A stretch of 19,845 nucleotides of DNA, from the IMG/VR virus record IMGVR_UViG_3300031998_000043; one strand, written 5' to 3'. The stretch is from a virus (taxonomy: Duplodnaviria > Heunggongvirae > Uroviricota > Caudoviricetes). This document shows, piece after piece, positions 5,277 to 19,845 of the stretch. The translations under genes were made by a program, and so were the position numbers. The notes under the pieces were generated by a model that was not told where the DNA came from, searched no databases, and saw only the letters and a program-made list of their open reading frames with translations. How positions within the stretch are numbered: the stretch's first letter is position 1; each line of letters opens with the position of its first letter.

Positions 5277-6140
5277 ATGAACGCAGGTTTGTGTTTATCT
5301 GTTTCTGGTGGTGGAATTTTGGGTGTTGGCCCTGCTCACTATCTTGCTCGTCTTGAAGGAGACCTTGGGTGTCCGCTTGGTAATAGACTTATTGCTCAGG
5401 CTGGAACGTCTACTGGCTCTATCCTTGCGGCTGGTATGGCTGAAGGAATTAAGGCTATCGATATGGAAGAACTATATCGTAAGAAAGGTTCTACTATCTT
5501 TACAAAGTATCCTTGGTATAAGAGAGCCTTGCCCACTTGCCCTACTTATGATAATACCAACCTTAAGAAAATCCTTAAGGAAAAATTCAAGGGTAAAGTC
5601 AATGAGTGGAAAGAGCCTACATTCATTACATCTACATACATGAATGGAAAATCCGTAGAGAAGATTTGGGATGAAAAAGATGTTGTAGAAAAGTGGTTTG
5701 CAATTCTTACATCTTGCGCAGCTCCAACTTACTTTGATGTTATTGTTGACTCTATGTCTAGAAGCTTCTGTGATGGTGGTATGTGGGCCAACTCTTGTCC
5801 TCAGATCCTGATGGCAGGTATGTATCGTAGAGGTAATAGGAATATTCGCATTCTTAACCTTGAGACTGGTATGGATACTCCCAATACTGAAAGTGGAAAT
5901 AAGACTTTAGCTGGTTGGGCTACCTATATCTTTAAGAAATGGGTTGCCAGAGCTTCTAAGGCTAATGCTTATATTTGCTCTTCCGTACTGGGCGATGAGA
6001 ATTTCTTTAATGTTATGCCGGAATCTCATAAGACACATGAGATGGATGACATGAAGGAAATTGATATTGTCACTGATATTTGGGATAAGCAATACGATAA
6101 GGATCGTGAAAAACTTCTGAAATTCGTTAATCCGAGGTAG
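5277..6140 (+). CDS. Patatin-like phospholipase (287 aa)
   Basis: Gly-rich SGGGILG loop, nucleophile elbow GTSTG and DGG motif (FCDGGMWAN). RBS GGAGG. Confidence 0.92.
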   Translation: MNAGLCLSVSGGGILGVGPAHYLARLEGDLGCPLGNRLIAQAGTSTGSILAAGMAEGIKAIDMEELYRKKGSTIFTKYPWYKRALPTCPTYDNTNLKKILKEKFKGKVNEWKEPTFITSTYMNGKSVEKIWDEKDVVEKWFAILTSCAAPTYFDVIVDSMSRSFCDGGMWANSCPQILMAGMYRRGNRNIRILNLETGMDTPNTESGNKTLAGWATYIFKKWVARASKANAYICSSVLGDENFFNVMPESHKTHEMDDMKEIDIVTDIWDKQYDKDREKLLKFVNPR

Positions 6141-6142
6141 TT

Positions 6143-6580
6143 ATGCTGTATCACTCTCGAATGATAAATGTTAGGCGAGGCCCATTCGATAAGGTTGATG
6201 CCGAGCTATATAACTTTTTCAAACAGGGTGATACTCTTGCTATTAGATACACCGACAAGAACTTTGCCTTGTTTGTAAATGACAAGCAGTATAGTTCTAG
6301 AATAGATATCACCACTGAAGAGAATACTTACCATTTGGTAGATACGATCAAGGGTAGGTACTTCATTGAAAGAGATGGTGATGACTATTTTATAATGCCA
6401 GCTAGAACATACACTGATGAAAATGGTGAAACTCAGTTCTGTCCTGATGACTCCAATAAGCTAAAACTTAAGAAGGTCAGAAAGGCTTTCATTGGTGGTG
6501 TTAACTGTAAATGTTCTATACCCTACGGCAAAAGGTGTAATCGGAAAATGGGTCAGCGTCCTCTCAATGCTGGCTTATAG
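6143..6580 (+). CDS. Hypothetical protein (145 aa)
   Basis: Starts 2 nt after the patatin stop, in the same operon. No motif recognised. Confidence 0.7.
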   Translation: MLYHSRMINVRRGPFDKVDAELYNFFKQGDTLAIRYTDKNFALFVNDKQYSSRIDITTEENTYHLVDTIKGRYFIERDGDDYFIMPARTYTDENGETQFCPDDSNKLKLKKVRKAFIGGVNCKCSIPYGKRCNRKMGQRPLNAGL

Positions 6581-6612: not shown

Positions 6613-8583
6613 ATGAACAAAGAATCTATGTCGAAGTATGATGAGCTAATGGCTGCCGCCGAAAGCATCAAGAAAGAATTGCTTGATTGTGATAAGCAGG
6701 TTGACCAGTTTGCTCAACTGATTGCTCCGTGGTATTGCGCCCCGGAAATCATTACTAAGCCTCTGGTCATTAACCTTGTTGGTATGACTGGAATTGGTAA
6801 GACTCAGATGTTCCGTCTGTTCTGTGATAGACTTAAGCTGAACAGCCTTGCCGAAACACTCACTTGCGCTAACAATACCTCTATCAATCCTTCTACTGTT
6901 GCCTTCCGCATGAAAGAAGAACAAGGTCTTGAAAAAGGTATCATCTTCATTGATGAATTCCAGAATTTCTCCTGTAAGGGAATGATGGGTGTTAGAACGA
7001 ATAATCCTAGCACTCAAGAATTCTGGAACCTGCTCTCCGATGGTAAAGTCAAGATCAATATGTCCAAGGAAGAACTTGAACGATTGATGTACAGAGCTCA
7101 GGGCGAAATGCAGACAGAAGAAGAAGAACTGTCTAACGGAAAGAAGAGACAGTCATTCCCGACGTTCTTTGGAAGTACTGCGTACCGTCTTTACATTCTT
7201 TGTAAGAAGAAAGTTCCTCTTGAGAAAATCAAGGTCATGCACGGTAAGGAAGCTTTCAAGTTTGTTAGTGAGCTTTACGAACACTATGATAATAAGCCGA
7301 TTTACGCAGACTTTTCTAAGTTCCTGTTCGTGACTGCCTGTAACCTTGACTGTGTTTTTGCAGATGCCACTGATGTAGCTTCTTGTGAGATCGATGCTGA
7401 TGAAGTGTATGAATCTACCAAGGATGTAAATATCTTTGATGTTAAGGAAGGATTATCCTACTTTTTCTTTCCTGAACAGGTTGCAAGACTTGGTAACAAC
7501 TTTATCATCTTCCATTCTCTTTCCAAAGACAGCTTCGAAAAGATCATTGATGGTTGTCTTAATGAAATCTCTGAAAATACTAAGGCAGCCATTGGTACTG
7601 AAATTACTTTCGACAAATCTGTCAAGGACATGGTCTACCGCAATGGCGTTTTCCCGACACAGGGTGCTAGACCTTTGATGTCTACTATTAATGGTACTAT
7701 TGCTTCAGCTATTCCTCTGATTGTATTCAAACAGAAGGAAGCTGACAAGAAGATTACCGTTAAGTATAATGATGAAAAAATGGAACTAGAAGCTAATGGC
7801 GTAAGCGTAAGCTGCATTGGCCCTTATGACGAAAGTGCTAGACGCATTAAGACTAAGGTTAATGAACGCCGTTGTACTTCGGTTCATGAATCTGGTCATG
7901 CTATAGTCTATGCCGAATCCTTTGGAGCTATTCCTAAGAAGATGGTCAGCATTGTAGCAGACTCTAGAGTTGCTGCCGGATTCATTTCTACTCACATAAT
8001 TCGTCATACTGCCATTACAATGAAGGCTTTCATTTGTGTAGCCCTTGCTGGAATGGTTGCTGAAGAGATTGTATTCGGTAAGGACTTCCGCACGGTTGGA
8101 TGCTCTTCTGACTTGGCCAAGGCTACTGCAATGGCTGCCGCCTATGTTAGAAAGTTTGCATTCACCGATAAGATAAAGGCTGTGGTCGGAACCAAGGAAA
8201 ATGAGTACAATAAGCTCTCTGAAACTTCCGAAGTGATCAACGATATCATCAAGGATTGTATCAAGACTACTAAGGAAATTATCACTAAGAATATTGAAAT
8301 TCTTAAGGAAATCTCTGAAGTAATGTTTGAAAAGACTAGATGTACTCCGGAAGAGTTCAAGGCTATTGCCGATAAGCATGGAAAGAAGTATGTCATTGTC
8401 AGTCCTTCCAAGAAGATTACTCCTAACTTTGAAGAACGCTATAAGATGTTCGATGAGTCCAAGGTTAAGTCTATCGAAGAAGTATCTAATGCTGAAGAAT
8501 GTGTATCCTTCTTTGAAGGTGCTTACAGAGAATCCGATTCCGGTATGACTCCGGCAGTTGACGATCTTTTCTTGGACTTCTAA
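6613..8583 (+). CDS. AAA+ ATPase (ClpA/B D2-like) fused to an M41 (FtsH-type) zinc metallopeptidase domain, no transmembrane segment (656 aa)
   Basis: Walker A GMTGIGKT and Walker B IIFIDE. ClpB-D2-like FFFPEQVARLG..IIFHSL and GARPL. M41 motifs HESGH, AGMVAEEIVFG and GCSSDL. RBS AAGGA. Confidence 0.85.
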   Translation: MNKESMSKYDELMAAAESIKKELLDCDKQVDQFAQLIAPWYCAPEIITKPLVINLVGMTGIGKTQMFRLFCDRLKLNSLAETLTCANNTSINPSTVAFRMKEEQGLEKGIIFIDEFQNFSCKGMMGVRTNNPSTQEFWNLLSDGKVKINMSKEELERLMYRAQGEMQTEEEELSNGKKRQSFPTFFGSTAYRLYILCKKKVPLEKIKVMHGKEAFKFVSELYEHYDNKPIYADFSKFLFVTACNLDCVFADATDVASCEIDADEVYESTKDVNIFDVKEGLSYFFFPEQVARLGNNFIIFHSLSKDSFEKIIDGCLNEISENTKAAIGTEITFDKSVKDMVYRNGVFPTQGARPLMSTINGTIASAIPLIVFKQKEADKKITVKYNDEKMELEANGVSVSCIGPYDESARRIKTKVNERRCTSVHESGHAIVYAESFGAIPKKMVSIVADSRVAAGFISTHIIRHTAITMKAFICVALAGMVAEEIVFGKDFRTVGCSSDLAKATAMAAAYVRKFAFTDKIKAVVGTKENEYNKLSETSEVINDIIKDCIKTTKEIITKNIEILKEISEVMFEKTRCTPEEFKAIADKHGKKYVIVSPSKKITPNFEERYKMFDESKVKSIEEVSNAEECVSFFEGAYRESDSGMTPAVDDLFLDF

Positions 8584-10427: not shown

Positions 10428-10469
10428 AAAAAGATATCCCAAGACCCTATGTCTTGGGATATTCTTTTT
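10428..10469. terminator. Bidirectional intrinsic terminator
   Basis: 12-bp stem ATATCCCAAGAC-cctat-GTCTTGGGATAT (10434-10462) with A- and T-runs on either side, between convergent genes. Confidence 0.85.
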
Positions 10470-10914
10470 ATTCTTGCACCTTGTCGGGATGATGTTTGAC
10501 CTCGGCGGCCACCAAAGAAGCTTCTTTGATCCTCTGATGCGGTCTGGATGTAAATCCAGAAGCAACACGTTCCTCGACCACACGCTTTTCGTAGTCTTTA
10601 CGGTATTTGGTCTTGCCAAGAGCAAAGAACTGCATATTATTTATGTCAGCCAAAGAGACATATGTGTGAAGCCAATAACGTTGCGTGTAGGTATCGTCAG
10701 CAGGTTCAAAAGCTAAAGTTTCAGAGCCTTCATCATAGTCGAAACAATGAAGGACGTGACCAACAGAATGGTCTTCCTGATAGTTGAAATCGGTATTGAT
10801 TTCCAACTGGTTTGTCTTATTAAGGAACGAGACACCGTACTTATTGATAAACTCAGGAACGGAACCCGAAAATCCATACTTCGACATTATAAATTTCAGA
10901 GCAGCATCTGTCAT
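10468..10914 (-). CDS. Hypothetical protein (148 aa)
   Basis: ORF with RBS GAGG and TATATAA(T) at 10931-10937 upstream. Confidence 0.8.
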   Translation of the reverse strand: MTDAALKFIMSKYGFSGSVPEFINKYGVSFLNKTNQLEINTDFNYQEDHSVGHVLHCFDYDEGSETLAFEPADDTYTQRYWLHTYVSLADINNMQFFALGKTKYRKDYEKRVVEERVASGFTSRPHQRIKEASLVAAEVKHHPDKVQE

Positions 10915-10930
10915 ATCTTACCTCTTTTCA

Positions 10931-10937
10931 TTATATA
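10931..10937 (-). promoter_or_regulatory. TATATAA promoter element
   Basis: AACTATATAATG on the minus strand, 17 nt upstream of ATG 10914. Confidence 0.5.
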
Positions 10938-10955
10938 GTTACGCAGAGGAATAGA

Positions 10956-11423
10956 GTGATTAATCTTCTTAAAAGAATTCGCATAGCATCAGAGAAGGGT
11001 CATTGTATATCTGTAAAGATAGATCCCAAGAATACAACACAAGAATTTTTAGATGCTATTGATGATGAAGCCATTGACACGATTCTGTTCAGAGATTGGT
11101 ATTTTACCCTCATCAAAGGAAATGAACGAAGAGAGGGTAATCTGTCGTACCTAAAGCTCTGGCATCATGGAATATCTAGAGAAAAGGCGGAACGCTTCCT
11201 AGATTTATATGGAATGATCCATTGCCTAGATGCCATAAAAGCTTTAAGAGAAGACGCTAAAATTTCATTAAGCGTTATACGGAAACTTAATCCTCCCAAG
11301 CTATTCAACCCAATTAAAGACTGGATGGGAATTGCTAGTGATTATGGAGAGGATTTCAGCGTGACGACTTTTAGAAATAAAATTTCTGACGAAGTCGAAA
11401 TAGTTGTATCGCACAACAAATAA
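10956..11423 (+). CDS. Hypothetical protein (155 aa, GTG start)
   Basis: RBS GAGGA upstream; followed directly by a terminator. Confidence 0.7.
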   Translation: MINLLKRIRIASEKGHCISVKIDPKNTTQEFLDAIDDEAIDTILFRDWYFTLIKGNERREGNLSYLKLWHHGISREKAERFLDLYGMIHCLDAIKALREDAKISLSVIRKLNPPKLFNPIKDWMGIASDYGEDFSVTTFRNKISDEVEIVVSHNK

Positions 11424-14067: not shown

Positions 14068-14097
14068 TGTGGAAAGCTTCGGCTTTCCACATTTTTT
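14068..14097 (+). terminator. Intrinsic terminator of the portal gene
   Basis: TGTGGAAAGC-TTCG-GCTTTCCACA followed by TTTTTT. Confidence 0.92.
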
Positions 14098-14100
14098 AAG

Positions 14101-14133
14101 AAAAAAAGACGGGAACACTCCTGTACCCGTCTT
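14101..14133 (-). terminator. Intrinsic terminator closing ncRNA 1
   Basis: AAGACGGG...CCCGTCTT stem with 7 A on the plus side, giving a U-tract on the minus strand. It sits back-to-back with the portal terminator, and no credible minus-strand gene ends here. Confidence 0.8.
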
Positions 14134-14640
14134 ATAACCCCGTTACCGGAGTTTTGCTAATCCCTATGGGTAGGATCCCTATTGTCTGGAGCTATTCTAC
14201 GATGTGGGTATCGCACATTAGTAGTGAACAGGGCAAGTTAATGCCTTGTTATGCCCGTGCTTTGTCGTACCGGCATCCGAGGACATTTGAGTGTCCAGTC
14301 TCCAGATCCACGGAGAGGATCCATTTTTTGCGGTGGCGTGTCTCATCCACTGGCCCCACGTCGCGGGATTCTTCTAGACAGTACCATTTCAGCTTGCGCA
14401 TCGGCTTACTTAGATACAAACCAGCCTCTTCGCCTCGTCCATAGTTTGCAAGACCACGGCGGCTCTTCTGGTTCCGTTGAGTGCTCACCACTGAGGATAG
14501 CTTCTCCTCAAAGGCTTCTCGCTCCATTTTACGGCTTTGTCCCAACGGCGACTCAGCACAACCCCTACGCTACGAGTATGTATACGTAGAGGACACCTCC
14601 TAAGATATTTGATCTTAACATCGAGGAGATTAGGTCAAAA
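14101..14640 (-). ncRNA. Putative large structured ncRNA 1 (~540 nt), family unassigned
   Basis: Locally GC-enriched (a sampled 60-nt line is 53% GC in an AT-rich genome). Bounded by TATATAA and a terminator. The 5' end TTTTG-ac-CTAATCTC (14640-14626) pairs with GGGATTAG-CAAAA (14164-14152). Many hairpins (TGAGGA/TCCTCA, GGACA/TGTCC, ATGTG/CACAT, AACTCCG-GTAA-CGGGGTT with a GNRA loop). Shares motifs with ncRNA 2. Confidence 0.75.
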
Positions 14641-15738: not shown

Positions 15739-15942
15739 AAAACTTTCTATTGTGGAGAATTTCACACATGAATCTTCTAATATTAAAGCCGTTATTACGC
15801 TAATACGAAAATTCAGTTTGAATTATTCAGACGAGTTTAGGTATTAGCATATACTTTCTCGTTTGATTCCACAATCGTTCTAACTTTACTTTGGAAACAG
15901 GCTCCACAAGCCGCATAGTAAAAATTGAAATGGAGACAAATG

Positions 15943-18216
15943 ATGATCACAGAGATCGAAAAAAGAGATGGTAGAGTTGTACCGTTTACTGAACAGAAGG
16001 TGTTCAATGCGGTATATAAGTCATTCGCAGAAGTTGCAGCTAAGAATGGCACTACGGTAGATGAGAACAACGTCAAGATCGTTGTTGACGAAGTCGTGAA
16101 GGATATCCAAGATCTTCAAGCAGACCGTCTTCAAATTGACGAAATGCAGTCTATTGTAATTTGTGCTATTAAGGACAAGGGCTTCACGGAAGAATTCGAA
16201 GCATATCGTAACTTCCGTAACCGCCGTAACAGAGCAAGAAATCGTAAGATGCCTCTGTACTCCAAGTTGGCTGATATTACTTTCAGCGACCTCGAAGACT
16301 CTAACATCAAGCGTGAAAATGGTAACATTGATGGAAATTCCGCAATGGGTAAAATGCTTCGGTATGGTTCTGAAGCTGCCAAGGAATTCTTCCTTGATCG
16401 TGTTATTAGCGAAAAGTATTCCAATGCTCATAGAGAAGGGTTTATCCATATTCATGATATGGACTTCTATGGCATTACGACGACATGTACCCAGATTGAC
16501 CTTGTTCAGATGCTCGAAACAGGCTTCAACACTGGTCATGGGTTTGTCCGTCCTCCTAATTCTATTCGTACCGCTGCTGCTCAGACTGCTATTCTTATTC
16601 AGTCTAACCAGAATGACCAGCATGGCGGTCAGTCTATCCCTAACTTTGACTTGGGATTGGCTAAGTATGTAAAGCTTTCTTTCAACAAGATCCTTCGTCA
16701 TGAATTCGAAGATGCCTTGTTTTTGGCTGATGTCAAGGAAGAAGATGTTAAGGCTATGGAGAAGGACTTGTTTGCTGACAAGTATAAATATTCCATGCAG
16801 GATTGCGAAGCTTTCTGTAATGATATTGCCAGTTGTGGTATTGAAAAGTCTGAAGGCGAAAAGCTGTTTAAGCTCTCATTGAAGCGTATCTATGGAAAGA
16901 CTTATCAGGCTATGGAAGCATTGTTGTTCAACCTGAATACGATGCATAGTAGAGCAGGTGCTCAGGTTCCGTTCTCTTCTATTAACTACGGTACGGAAAC
17001 TTCTGAAGAAGCTCGTCTGGTTATCAGGTGTATGCTTGAAGTGACTGACAAGGGTCTTGGTCATGGTGAAACACCGATCTTCCCCATTCAGATTTTCCGT
17101 GTAATGGAAGGTGTGAACTACAATCCGGGCGATCCTAACTATGACTTGTTCAAGCTTGCCATGAAGGTATCTGCTCACAGGTTCTTCCCGAACTGGGAAT
17201 TCCAAGATTCTCCGTTCAATATGCAATACTATGTGCCGGGTAAGCCTGAAACACTTGTTTCCACGATGGGTTGCCGTACCAGAGTTGTTGCAGATGTTAA
17301 TGCTGAAGTTCCGCAGGTGTGGCGTAGAGGTAATCTCTCTTTCACCACTATTAACCTCCCTCGTCTTGCTATCGTTAACAGAGGCAACTGGGCTGGATTC
17401 TATGCGGATCTTGACAAGTATCTGAATCTCTGTAAAGATCAGTTGCTTGAACGCTATGCTCTTCAGTGTAAGCAGAAAGTAAAGAACTTCAAGTTCCTGA
17501 TGGGTCAGCATGTATGGCTTGATTCTGAGAAGCTTGGAATGAATGACACTCTTGAGTCTGTCCTGAAACATGGATCTTTGTCTATTGGTTTCATCGGTCT
17601 GGCTGAAGCTCTGATTCTCATGACTGGTCATCATCATGGCGAGTCTGAAGAAGCTCAGAAAGAAGGTCTTGCCATTGTTAAGCACATGAGAGACTTCTGT
17701 GATAAGTGGACTGAAGAACTGAAGCTGAACTTTACCCTCTTAGCTACTCCGGCTGAAGGATTGTCTGGACGCTTTACTAGGATTGATAAGGCTAAGTTTG
17801 GCGATATTCCGGGAATTACTGATAAGGACTTCTATACAAATTCCTGTCATATTCCTGTAGACTATAAGTGCTCTGCTTTCCATAAGATTCAGGTAGAAGC
17901 TCCGTATCACGCTCTTTGCAATGCAGGTCATATACTCTATGTAAAGATGGATGGTGATGCTACTCAAAATCTCGAAGCCTATGAGAAGATTGTCCGTTGT
18001 ATGCATGATAATCATGTAGGCTACGGAGCAGTCAATATTGATGTAGACTATTGTACTAAGTGCCATAAGAGTGGTATCTTCAATGAAGATAAATGTCCGT
18101 TCTGTGGAAGTACTGAGATTGATCGTATCAGACGTATTACTGGTTATCTTGTTGGCTCTTTGGCTAATTGGAATAATGGTAAGAAGGCTGAATACAAGAT
18201 CAGAGGAAACGTGTAA
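15943..18216 (+). CDS. nrdD: Anaerobic (class III) ribonucleoside-triphosphate reductase, large subunit, with an N-terminal ATP cone
   Basis: ATP-cone start IEKRDGRVVPF, then FIHIHDMDFY, TMGCRT, ATPAEG, Zn-site CTKC...CPFC and glycyl-radical loop RRITGYL. RBS GGAGA favours ATG 15943 (alternative 15940). Confidence 0.97.
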   Translation: MITEIEKRDGRVVPFTEQKVFNAVYKSFAEVAAKNGTTVDENNVKIVVDEVVKDIQDLQADRLQIDEMQSIVICAIKDKGFTEEFEAYRNFRNRRNRARNRKMPLYSKLADITFSDLEDSNIKRENGNIDGNSAMGKMLRYGSEAAKEFFLDRVISEKYSNAHREGFIHIHDMDFYGITTTCTQIDLVQMLETGFNTGHGFVRPPNSIRTAAAQTAILIQSNQNDQHGGQSIPNFDLGLAKYVKLSFNKILRHEFEDALFLADVKEEDVKAMEKDLFADKYKYSMQDCEAFCNDIASCGIEKSEGEKLFKLSLKRIYGKTYQAMEALLFNLNTMHSRAGAQVPFSSINYGTETSEEARLVIRCMLEVTDKGLGHGETPIFPIQIFRVMEGVNYNPGDPNYDLFKLAMKVSAHRFFPNWEFQDSPFNMQYYVPGKPETLVSTMGCRTRVVADVNAEVPQVWRRGNLSFTTINLPRLAIVNRGNWAGFYADLDKYLNLCKDQLLERYALQCKQKVKNFKFLMGQHVWLDSEKLGMNDTLESVLKHGSLSIGFIGLAEALILMTGHHHGESEEAQKEGLAIVKHMRDFCDKWTEELKLNFTLLATPAEGLSGRFTRIDKAKFGDIPGITDKDFYTNSCHIPVDYKCSAFHKIQVEAPYHALCNAGHILYVKMDGDATQNLEAYEKIVRCMHDNHVGYGAVNIDVDYCTKCHKSGIFNEDKCPFCGSTEIDRIRRITGYLVGSLANWNNGKKAEYKIRGNV

Positions 18217-18257
18217 AAAAAGAACAACGACCGGGTGATGAGTCCGGTCGTTGTTCT
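18215..18257. terminator. Terminator hairpin shared by nrdD (+) and ncRNA 2 (-)
   Basis: 14-bp perfect stem AGAACAACGACCGG (18221-18234) / CCGGTCGTTGTTCT (18244-18257). The better U-tract (A6 on plus) is on the minus strand. Confidence 0.85.
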
Positions 18258-18774
18258 GTTTCTCCTCAGCAACCAATGGTGGCTGTTTAGGAGTTAGAAG
18301 CATTGTGCACTTGCTTCTAGCCTTCTACAGAGACCTATAGCTTTCCTGCCCAAGACAAGACTTACAGGTATTGCGATGGTCTTAACCCTTCCTCCAGTTC
18401 ATATAGCAGGGCGCCCCCTGTGGCACTATGAAGAACCAGATTCCAAGCTATCCTACAATGGCCATTGTAGTGACATGGAGAGTATTTAGTTAATCCTAAC
18501 TACGGATATTTAACTCTTCTCCGTCAGATGCTGTCGGCATCCTTATCCATCCCCTTCCGGCATTGGAAGATGGACTACAGCGATTCGCCACTTCGGGAGA
18601 GCTACTCCTTTAGGCTGTCGTGGAACGCTGCCAATTTCACCGTACTCTTTCAGACGAACACCTGATCCCCAAGAATGCGAACCTGGGTCAGATGCATAGT
18701 ACGGCTATCAATCTACTACATCAGTCTTTCGTGATTAGATCGATTGAGCATAGTCTTTCAACATACGCTATAAG
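18215..18774 (-). ncRNA. Putative large structured ncRNA 2 (~555 nt), paralogue of ncRNA 1, family unassigned
   Basis: No credible ORF and partly GC-enriched. Bounded by TATATAAT and a terminator. 5' CTTATAGC (18774-18767) pairs with GCTATAGG (18341-18334). Nested helices include CCGTACT/AGTACGG, GCATCTGA/TCAGGTGT, CCATC/GATGG, GGATGC/GCATCT, TAGAAGCA/TGCTTCTA and CTCCT..CAGC/GCTG-AGGAG. Shares motifs with ncRNA 1. Confidence 0.75.
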
Positions 18775-18775
18775 A

Positions 18776-18782
18776 TTATATA
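18776..18782 (-). promoter_or_regulatory. TATATAA(T) promoter element for ncRNA 2
   Basis: ATAGTATATAATC on the minus strand, just downstream of the upstream gene's terminator and overlapped by a small inverted repeat TACTATT-aac-AATAGTA (18781-18797). Confidence 0.55.
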
Positions 18783-18806
18783 CTATTAACAATAGTAAAA
18801 ATACAC

Positions 18807-18836
18807 AAAAAAGAACAGGATCCGAAGATCCTGTTC
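18807..18836 (-). terminator. Intrinsic terminator of the 158-aa gene
   Basis: GAACAGGATC / GATCCTGTTC stem with a UUCG loop on the minus strand and a T6 tract. Confidence 0.9.
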
Positions 18837-18868
18837 CTTTTGACCACTTCGCCTTTTTGTGGAAAATC

Positions 18869-19345
18869 CTAGAAACGCTTACCTTCAAGATGAGCAAACT
18901 TCTTAAAGAACTTTGCGTTGGCATCCTTATGCTGTTCAATGACAGCATAGTCACGAAGCTGATTGAACAACTTCTTGGGCTGACGAAGCATCCACTTCTT
19001 GAGATTGTTGATGACATCTTCGGTCTTACCAATACGCTTGATGTTGAACTTGGCATAGTTCTGTTCCTGCTGTTCTTCAGTCTTCTTAGTCCAGACTTCC
19101 ACATAGTAATAGTCGAACTTCTTCTTCGTATCAAAATCCTCGTCAGTGTTATGGACGAAATTGAATTCGACGGTGGAATGCAAGAATGGATGAGTAGCCT
19201 GAAGCTTCATGGCTTCCTCGACTGCCTTCATGTCAACCATAGGCAGAGCCTTCTTCTTAAAAGGCTTCTTGGCAGTCTTCTTTTCAGCTTCAGGACGCTT
19301 ATAAGTGTTAAGTTTCTTGGTCGGTTCCTTAATCTGTTCGGGCAT
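18869..19345 (-). CDS. Hypothetical basic, Lys-rich protein (158 aa)
   Basis: RBS AGGAG, TATATAA upstream (19380-19386) and a terminator downstream. Confidence 0.85.
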   Translation of the reverse strand: MPEQIKEPTKKLNTYKRPEAEKKTAKKPFKKKALPMVDMKAVEEAMKLQATHPFLHSTVEFNFVHNTDEDFDTKKKFDYYYVEVWTKKTEEQQEQNYAKFNIKRIGKTEDVINNLKKWMLRQPKKLFNQLRDYAVIEQHKDANAKFFKKFAHLEGKRF

Positions 19346-19452: not shown

Positions 19453-19845
19453 ATGGCTATAACCTATCCATTATTTTCACATGAAGTTAATGCAGATATT
19501 AGGCATCCATCTAGGATGTTTCATCGTAAAGCTAGGCCTATAAAGCTTACTATTGTTAGAGGAATACCCGGAAGCGGTAAGTCTACTTTTGCCAAGAAGT
19601 ATGCTGCTGCTAATGGGCATATTAAAGTCATCGAGCCGGATGACTTTTGGACTGATCGTAAGAGAAAGTATGAATATCATGCAGAACTGCGTGAAGTATA
19701 TGAAATGTACGGAAAGGCTGCCGTTACCCATGAGCTTATTATAGAGAAACGCCCATGCGTGATTGCAGACGTATTTGCGACTAGAAAAGATCTTCAGTTC
19801 TTCAAAGATCTTTGTGAAATGTATGAAATTCCTTTGGAAGTCTTT
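19453..19845 (+). CDS. P-loop kinase (AAA_33 / polynucleotide-kinase-like), truncated by the window edge
   Basis: Manual translation MAITYPLFSHEVNADIRHPSRMFHRKARPIKLTIVRGIPGSGKSTFAKKY...VIEPDDFW...CVIADVF..., with Walker A GIPGSGKST and RBS AAGGA. Missing from the ORF track. Confidence 0.85.
   Translation, partial: MAITYPLFSHEVNADIRHPSRMFHRKARPIKLTIVRGIPGSGKSTFAKKYAAANGHIKVIEPDDFWTDRKRKYEYHAELREVYEMYGKAAVTHELIIEKRPCVIADVFATRKDLQFFKDLCEMYEIPLEVF

Follow-up and report, generated by a model that had tools for sequence, protein, structure and literature searches.

The 19,845-nucleotide (nt) stretch of viral DNA analyzed here (hereafter, the window), from the IMG/VR virus record IMGVR_UViG_3300031998_000043, includes, between nrdD and a gene for a 158-amino acid (aa) protein, a minus-strand element, non-coding RNA (ncRNA) 2, that very probably is a real, discrete, structured RNA. 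We reach this conclusion because the element is devoid of coding capacity, shows compensatory evolution on the minus strand only, is represented by separate contigs in RNA libraries and has no match in Rfam. When all the observations are considered jointly, they are probably best explained by an independent gene of a rumen jumbo phage that encodes a structured ncRNA of ~550 nt, with several domains and without a described family. Such a gene would form a self-contained cassette, which starts, immediately downstream of the previous gene's terminator, with an AT-rich TATATAAT-6N-G promoter and continues with the RNA and a strong intrinsic terminator.

Compensatory substitutions maintain the predicted fold

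The minimum free energy (MFE) of the minus strand was −191.9 kcal/mol (z = −4.8 compared to dinucleotide shuffles), and that of the plus strand was −166.7 kcal/mol (z = −2.9 in the same comparison). A close copy of the locus is found in the Logan contig L022, which encodes a 158-aa protein and an NrdD that are 95% and 99.7% identical, respectively, to those of the window, and which contains, in the same position, an RNA copy with 89% identity to ncRNA 2. The RNAalifold consensus of the two copies consists of ~20 helices with 161 pairs; at least ten helices had been drawn in a first-pass annotation of this DNA. Among the 161 consensus pairs, 10 differ between the window and L022 on one side and 6 on both sides, and none is broken. 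Outside the hypervariable hairpin H7, none of the 15 substitutions in paired columns breaks a pair, compared to a mean of 7.75 broken pairs and a minimum of 2 in 20,000 trials in which the same substitutions were placed randomly on paired positions of the same base (P < 5 × 10−5). In a control for circularity, where the fold was the MFE structure of the window only and thus independent of L022, 21 substitutions broke 5 pairs, compared to an average of 12.1 under the null (P < 5 × 10−5). For the MFE structure of the plus strand, 14 pairs were lost to 26 substitutions, which is near the null level seen for the minus strand.

The 22 G-U pairs in the minus-strand fold, the one-sided changes that retain pairing only on the minus strand, and the direction of both the promoter and the U-tract jointly point to the minus strand as the functional one. 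Among the variants listed from the RNA-library contigs described below, the fold of the minus strand stays paired at all 7 positions that lie in paired columns, and several of these variants pair through G-U, that is, are mismatched on the plus strand.

Both helices that had been named in the first-pass annotation are present in the consensus fold, and they differ in the support that they receive from covariation. The helix CCGUACU/AGUACGG, which closes the multi-stem H3, is backed by an A-U to G-U change and by two double-compensated pairs within its domain; in total, L022 differs in H3 by two double changes, both from C-G to U-A, and by three one-sided ones. The helix GUUC..CAUAG/CUAU..GAAC is predicted but invariant and hence draws no such support. 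In H12, one double and two one-sided changes were observed in L022. The core formed by H4-H6 is 99% identical to that of L022, with two differences among the variants listed from four RNA libraries. Hairpin H7 exists in at least three unrelated sequence versions (the window, L022 and the variant from RNA run X13), with flanks that are >93% identical, as in a localised insert: in L022, the interior of the hairpin is replaced by unrelated sequence that folds into a different hairpin of its own, and in X13, the differences and insertions are concentrated at 18480-18510, a hairpin again being retained. At the tip of H2, 11 nt are deleted in L022. The insertions and deletions that separate the window from L022, namely, loss of the H2 tip and the swap of the H7 hairpin, are of the RNA type.

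A more distant copy is located in the phage contig G001 (locus L004), where NrdD is 83% identical to that of the window and the homologue of the 158-aa protein ~31% identical. In G001, the slot between these two genes holds a minus-strand 193-aa open reading frame (ORF) and then ~540 nt of non-coding DNA with the layout terminator, GATAGTATATTAT, RNA and a terminator of its own (MFE z = −5.3). Sequence similarity between the window RNA and L004 was evident from the Smith-Waterman (z = 13), global (z = 5.8) and nhmmer (E = 1.6 × 10−4) alignments. The L004 copy was also found by the covariance model R1, which represents the core H4-H6 and was built from the window and L022 only (45.9 bits, E = 1.7 × 10−11), and by model R3 (92.4 bits, E = 6 × 10−22). 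In the R1 alignment of L004, 97.9% of the cells are paired, and 9 pairs are double-changed, compared to 3.0 ± 1.4 after shuffling (0 of 500 shuffles) and 0-1 with slid partners. Beyond the core, visual inspection of L004 reveals H1, with its GAAA loop, and H2. Compensatory maintenance of pairs above the controls, as is typical of structured ncRNAs, is thus observed across three sequences from two lineages. The proposal that ncRNA 2 is a discrete, highly structured transcript rather than an untranslated region is supported by these homologues, which keep the helices, and by the separate 476-528 nt contigs in RNA libraries.

Presence in RNA libraries

A 31-mer index places at least part of the stretch in 20 runs from 11 studies, 15 of these runs being RNA libraries; two DNA runs may represent the source sample. 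According to their labels, the runs come from bovine or sheep gut metagenomes. Four RNA runs, each of a different study (X3, X4, X6 and X13), were picked for containing the stretch, and their contigs were aligned to the entire window. Each run yielded one contig on ncRNA 2, with a contig depth of 8-85: 476 nt in X3 (100% identical, 18283-18758), 499 nt in X4 (18247-18724, with ~22 further nt), 510 nt in X6 (18249-18724, with ~33 nt of diverged H2 sequence) and 528 nt in X13 (18244-18729, with ~33 nt of diverged H2 sequence). All four contigs end ~25 nt or less inside the predicted transcription start (~18746-18762), and three of the four have their other end at 18244-18249, within or next to the loop of the terminator hairpin. 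The flanking phage genes had almost no contig cover in these four runs, except for a 93%-identical piece at 10684-11038 and short nrdD fragments of low identity that derive from other organisms; such gaps in cover are no evidence of relative expression.

Organization of the ncRNA 2 locus

The 652 nt that separate the nrdD stop codon (18216) from the 158-aa gene contain no credible ORF. Inside 18215-18774, ORFs that have a start codon extend to 45 aa at most, and the stop-to-stop frames do not exceed 63 aa; a search for RNA-library contigs with the 63-aa frame (18474-18662) returned nothing. No tandem repeats, whether of the ToxI-like type III toxin-antitoxin or of the CRISPR-like kind, were detected in the ncRNA 2 stretch at a minimum score of 30. 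The features of the locus are collected in Table 1.

The isolating UUCG-loop hairpin that the first-pass annotation had placed upstream of the RNA is indeed there: it ends the 158-aa gene and is predicted to shield the RNA gene against read-through. The TATATAAT element reported there was recovered as well, within the longer element TAATAGTATATAAT, which is followed by 6 nt (CTTATA) and by the G that is the predicted +1; the RNA of L004 is preceded by the same layout, with GATAGTATATTAT as the element. The early promoter consensus of the virion RNA polymerase (vRNAP) of phage AR9 is AAATATATATTAT-(6N)-G(+1) (PMC5312081). The string TAATAGTATATAAT-CTTATA-G agrees with it in 9 of the 13 positions and in the 6N-G spacing, and contains, in addition, a perfect sigma-70 −10 hexamer. 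The AR9 vRNAP is reportedly sensitive to single deviations from its consensus (PMC5312081). Across the 48.8-kb record, only a handful of intergenic TATATWAW sites were found.

At the other end of the RNA, a hairpin with the U-tract on the RNA strand is present as expected. The same hairpin lies directly 3′ of the nrdD stop on the plus strand and so serves both strands. Sharing of this terminator with nrdD holds in the window but not as a general trait: in G001, the 193-aa gene separates nrdD from the RNA, which has its own terminator behind that gene, so that the shared terminator is particular to the window phage. The comment that ncRNA 2 sits where nrdG often follows nrdD amounts to a remark on position; no nrdG activase gene was found beside nrdD in the window or in the relatives.

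Table 1 Features of the ncRNA 2 locus and of other parts of the window.
Feature	Positions	Strand	Evidence
158-aa gene, upstream neighbour of ncRNA 2	18869-19345	−	
Intrinsic terminator of the 158-aa gene, UUCG-loop hairpin and T-run	18808-18841	−	Terminator scan, sequence; 100% conserved in L022
Promoter element TAATAGTATATAAT (contains TATATAAT, 18775-18782)	18775-18788	−	Sequence
ncRNA 2, predicted +1 (G at 18768) through the end of the U-tract, ~554 nt	18215-18768	−	ORF-less, MFE z, covariation, RNA-library contigs over 18244-18758
5′ domain: H1, GAAA-capped hairpin; H2, long hairpin; H3, multi-stem closed by CCGUACU/AGUACGG	18639-18768	−	Consensus fold
Conserved core: H4, closing helix with inner hairpin, loop UAGCU; H5, loop AAUGCC; H6, GGAUGC-CGACA-GCAUCU	18519-18638	−	Models R1, R3; pair counts
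H7, hypervariable hairpin	18478-18518	−	Identity 39% in H7 vs 93% in the rest of the RNA (window vs L022)
3′ domain: H8, perfect 18-nt palindromic hairpin, loop GGCC; H9, multi-stem with GUUC..CAUAG/CUAU..GAAC; H10; H11, loop with GUGCAC; H12	18258-18477	−	Consensus fold
Terminator hairpin, 14-16 bp, and U7; hairpin 18221-18257, begins 5 nt past the nrdD stop	18215-18257	−	Sequence, terminator scan, consensus fold
nrdD	15925-18216	+	NRDD, ATP-cone and Gly_radical domains
ncRNA 1, ~545 nt	14095-14640	−	ORF-poor, MFE z, RNA-library contigs
AAA_33 P-loop protein gene, divergent from the 158-aa gene	19453-19845	+	PHROG matches
FtsH-like protein gene	6613-8583	+	ClpB_D2-small and Peptidase_M41 domains
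Patatin-like phospholipase gene	5277-6140	+	

Variable occupancy of the slot

The slot between nrdD and the 158-aa gene holds the RNA alone in the window and in L022, and the 193-aa ORF together with the RNA in G001. Without the RNA, it holds a Cys-rich 255-aa ORF in the phage contigs G002 and G003, a 142-aa ORF in locus L023 and a 70-aa ORF in one ENA contig, where absence of the RNA was judged by gene spacing. Conservation beside nrdD in related phages, a point raised in the first-pass annotation, is therefore partial, extending to L022 and G001 only. Within this cassette hot spot, the 255-aa ORF occupies 5536-6303 (minus strand) of L003/L005 and the 193-aa ORF occupies 5335-5916 (minus strand) of L004, and no Pfam domain was found in either. 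A decayed copy of these slot ORFs was considered as the origin of ncRNA 2 and rejected, tblastn with the 255-aa and 193-aa ORFs finding no similarity.

Searches with models R1 and R3 identified no second copy of the RNA in G001-G004 and no copy anywhere in G002 (235 kb, 91% complete). In L023 and L024, loci that were reached via the 158-aa protein and NrdD, there is no gap large enough for the RNA. No match to ncRNA 2 was obtained among phage GenBank records with blastn in distant mode. A pattern of the H5-H6 core retrieved only the G001 contig from IMG/VR, the contig of G001 itself and 9 stretches alike in pattern alone from the JGI metagenomes, and 3 matches in unrelated bacteria from the GTDB genomes, approximately the number estimated by chance. 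Given that the slot is variable and that R1 and R3 find no copy in G002, the RNA gene is accessory, moron-like cargo.

Several of these observations weigh against an independent gene for a structured RNA. The covariation statistics are thin, with three DNA copies in two lineages and a consensus partly derived from the same alignment. Conservation of the RNA outside H7 (0.933) is only slightly higher than that at the 4-fold sites of the flanking genes (0.87-0.91). In L004, the 5′-domain model R2 gives a weak match (E = 0.9), at the collinear place, and the 3′ third of the RNA is barely alignable, except for GGAUAGC and UUAAGA, being largely lineage-specific. The RNA is missing from G002, the closest near-complete relative, and hence is dispensable for the core programme of the phage. 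Finally, the separate RNA-library contigs attest to presence and give a weak hint of the ends, contigs being blind to strand, exact ends and level.

The absence from G002, the modest excess of conservation over 4-fold sites and the lack of conservation of the 3′ third in G001 would also fit a non-functional sequence, that is, a structured spacer or a decayed gene remnant that is transcribed and stable only because it is GC-richer and hairpin-rich, for example, one that insulates the convergent nrdD and 158-aa units. We nevertheless consider such a sequence very unlikely: the substitutions systematically preserve pairing, and do so for just one of the strands, the core persists between lineages whose 158-aa proteins are only ~31% identical, both lineages provide the RNA with a promoter and a terminator of its own, the ORFs that occupy the slot elsewhere are not similar to it, and it is present in RNA libraries of several studies.

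Relation to described RNA families and possible functions

No family of Rfam 15, including GOLLD, OLE, HEARO, raiA, RNase P, tmRNA, 6S, pRNA, group I/II introns and riboswitches, matched the window at the gathering score, and at E ≤ 10, the only matches on 18100-18900 were short ones on the two terminator hairpins. For ROOL (RF03087, threshold 99.1 bits), there was no match at the gathering score and none at E ≤ 10 on 18100-18900; ROOL was not found in the record of the window (G000), G001 or G002 either, although the control genomes also lack ROOL, so that this result adds little beyond cmscan. As far as comparison with these models goes, ncRNA 2 belongs to no described RNA family.

Large multi-junction bacterial RNAs of such size are often catalytic, and the size and multi-junction form of ncRNA 2 are those of a large ribozyme or, alternatively, of a degenerate mobile-element RNA (a group I/II intron remnant, an RNase P-like or a self-processing RNA). 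For ROOL, catalysis has been argued (PMC5737381). The location in a cassette-exchange hot spot points in the same direction, as do the introns or homing endonucleases that nrdD genes of other phages carry according to their annotations. However, the Rfam models of introns, RNase P and small ribozymes are unmatched even at E ≤ 10. With its location outside any gene, the RNA has nothing to splice, and there is no ORF for an endonuclease or a reverse transcriptase. Signs of cleavage or joints are also lacking from the RNA-library contigs, each of which is a single piece that extends over nearly the full RNA. A ribozyme or mobile-element RNA thus appears improbable.

Under the independent ncRNA gene, which we prefer, the RNA would act in trans as a stable folded molecule, since the conserved core H4-H6, the hypervariable H7 and the lineage-specific 3′ third fit such a mode of action. 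The mechanism that we favour, by analogy and only as a possible one, is that of a ROOL/GOLLD-like architectural RNA, which, in infected cells, would form a particle that is compact in tertiary structure or, possibly, homo-oligomeric; a candidate contact is the loop of H4 with the self-complementary AGCU, which is kept in both lineages. Enrichment of self-complementary loops over shuffles was not significant (P = 0.05-0.35), and the analogy itself draws solely on size, the phage and rumen setting, and anatomy, both of which count against this mechanism; the palindromic loops are a lead, not evidence. A broader version, which we regard as conceivable though doubtful, holds that ncRNA 2, possibly with ncRNA 1 (see below), founds a new class of ornate jumbo-phage RNAs, acting as an RNA-only higher-order particle or ribozyme, expressed from an early promoter and abundant enough to assemble from small rumen metatranscriptomes.

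We rate as equally open, and likewise as no better than possible, a protein-binding decoy or scaffold. In this case, rather than forming an assembly of RNA only, ncRNA 2 would act as a sponge for some factor of the host, such as a defence nuclease, RNase, RNA chaperone or polymerase, or would be a subunit in a ribonucleoprotein of the phage. The observations that speak for a stable, abundant, structured RNA acting in trans count equally for this role, and occurrence as a moron-like accessory gene in a variable slot is typically seen for counter-defence cargo; the resemblance of the promoter to early vRNAP promoters and the presence nearby of a gene for a polynucleotide-kinase-like ATPase (19453, plus strand) agree with this role as well. 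On the other side, there is no co-varying partner gene, the flanking genes also being present in relatives without the RNA, and the known protein-binding RNA motifs (6S, CsrB, pRNA and ToxI) were not found.

A second ORF-poor stretch, neighbouring genes and genome

A second ORF-poor stretch on the minus strand, ncRNA 1, is accompanied by the element TATATAAC and its own terminator (MFE z = −3.5; no Rfam match). It has a syntenic homologue in G002 and G003 (L003/L005, ~1163-1779), and RNA-library contigs cover it in X3 (14184-14625) and X13 (14164-14536). It resembles ncRNA 2 in size class, in cassette layout (TATATAA element and terminator) and in the presence of RNA-library contigs; the two share a few short collinear motifs, namely, an AGCU-loop hairpin, GGAUGCCG and GUAGRAUAGCU. 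Paralogy of ncRNA 1 and ncRNA 2 is unsupported: nhmmer gave no match, the Smith-Waterman z was ~0 (vs 13 for L004), and R1 and R3 had no match at E ≤ 10. In another part of the window, 10684-11038, contigs from X13, X4 and X6 are ~89-93% identical; this segment, which spans the 5′ part of a minus-strand 148-aa ORF (10468-10914) and the start of a 155-aa ORF (10956-11423), could represent a further unit with strong expression.

The window is the reverse strand of G000:C1:7718-27562, from a 48.8-kb fragment of the IMG/VR record, the estimated completeness of which is 19%; the phage is an uncultured rumen jumbo phage. Its NrdD is 83-89% identical to those of the phage contigs G001, G002 and G003 (loci L003-L005; 135-242 kb). 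Among cellular NrdD proteins, those of Oscillospiraceae and other Clostridia come closest, with ~53% identity, which is too weak for naming a host. The listed TTG start of nrdD is probably too far upstream; the L022 protein starts with MITEIEK, at the second of two ATGs (~15943). The product of the gene at 19453-19845 matches in PHROG an ATPase family (E = 3.6 × 10−15) and polynucleotide kinase (E = 4.5 × 10−8), and, judging from these similarities, a function in RNA repair or as a nucleotide kinase is possible for this product encoded near the RNA gene.

Comparison with known systems

The predicted promoter region of ncRNA 2 is similar to that of the early, vRNAP-transcribed units of AR9/phiKZ-like phages (Lavysh et al. 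2017, PMC5312081) in having an AT-rich element with a TATAT core, a 6-nt spacing and G(+1), directly after a terminator. It differs from the AR9 early units in the incomplete agreement with the consensus, in the additional sigma-70 −10 box, and in that the product is an RNA, not an mRNA.

Symmetric kissing loops are known from OLE (L9.3) and GOLLD (L21a), in which the palindromic tetranucleotides GGCC, GAUC and AGCU interchange (PMC12286853). The loops of ncRNA 2 likewise carry palindromes, namely, AGCU in the inner hairpin of H4 (also in L004), GGCC in H8 and GUGCAC in H11, but unlike those of OLE and GOLLD, show no palindrome-to-palindrome covariation. GOLLD is a phage- and prophage-encoded RNA of >800 nt that forms a nanocage and whose expression is tied to lytic growth of the phage (PMC12286853). 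Similarly to GOLLD, ncRNA 2 is a large, ornate, phage-borne RNA with conserved and variable parts; it is, however, shorter and has no tRNA association and no Rfam match.

ROOL averages 581 nt (Weinberg et al. 2017, PMC5737381) and has been resolved as a nanocage by cryo-electron microscopy (Kretsch et al. 2025, PMC12286853). Unlike ROOL, ncRNA 2 is unmatched by the ROOL covariance model, is found so far in one small jumbo-phage clade, has a predicted fold of which pseudoknots and quaternary contacts are not part, and lacks the tRNA genes that frequently neighbour ROOL and GOLLD (no tRNA was found by ARAGORN in the 19.8-kb window). The resemblance to ROOL lies in the length (~554 nt), the multistem junctions with ~20 helices, the stand-alone nature and the phage and rumen setting, with bovine and sheep gut runs and phage relatives of 135-242 kb, ROOL itself having been first seen in cow rumen data, in phages and prophages. 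A poorly conserved internal region is a further common trait, represented by the linker in ROOL and by H7 in ncRNA 2.

Very few large structured RNAs of bacteria and phages are known, mainly ROOL, GOLLD, OLE, HEARO and raiA, and unexpected biology has come from each of them, RNA-only nanocages being the latest example. Within this known kind, large structured phage-borne ncRNAs, ncRNA 2 would constitute a new class, implying that the 'morons' of jumbo phages can be RNA genes, which are missed by protein-centred annotation. It is a concrete candidate for structure determination, and the sister phages with and without the gene provide a natural test of the role of large RNAs for phages. Should ncRNA 2 indeed represent a new ornate class, it would join ROOL and GOLLD as the third giant RNA architecture borne by phages.

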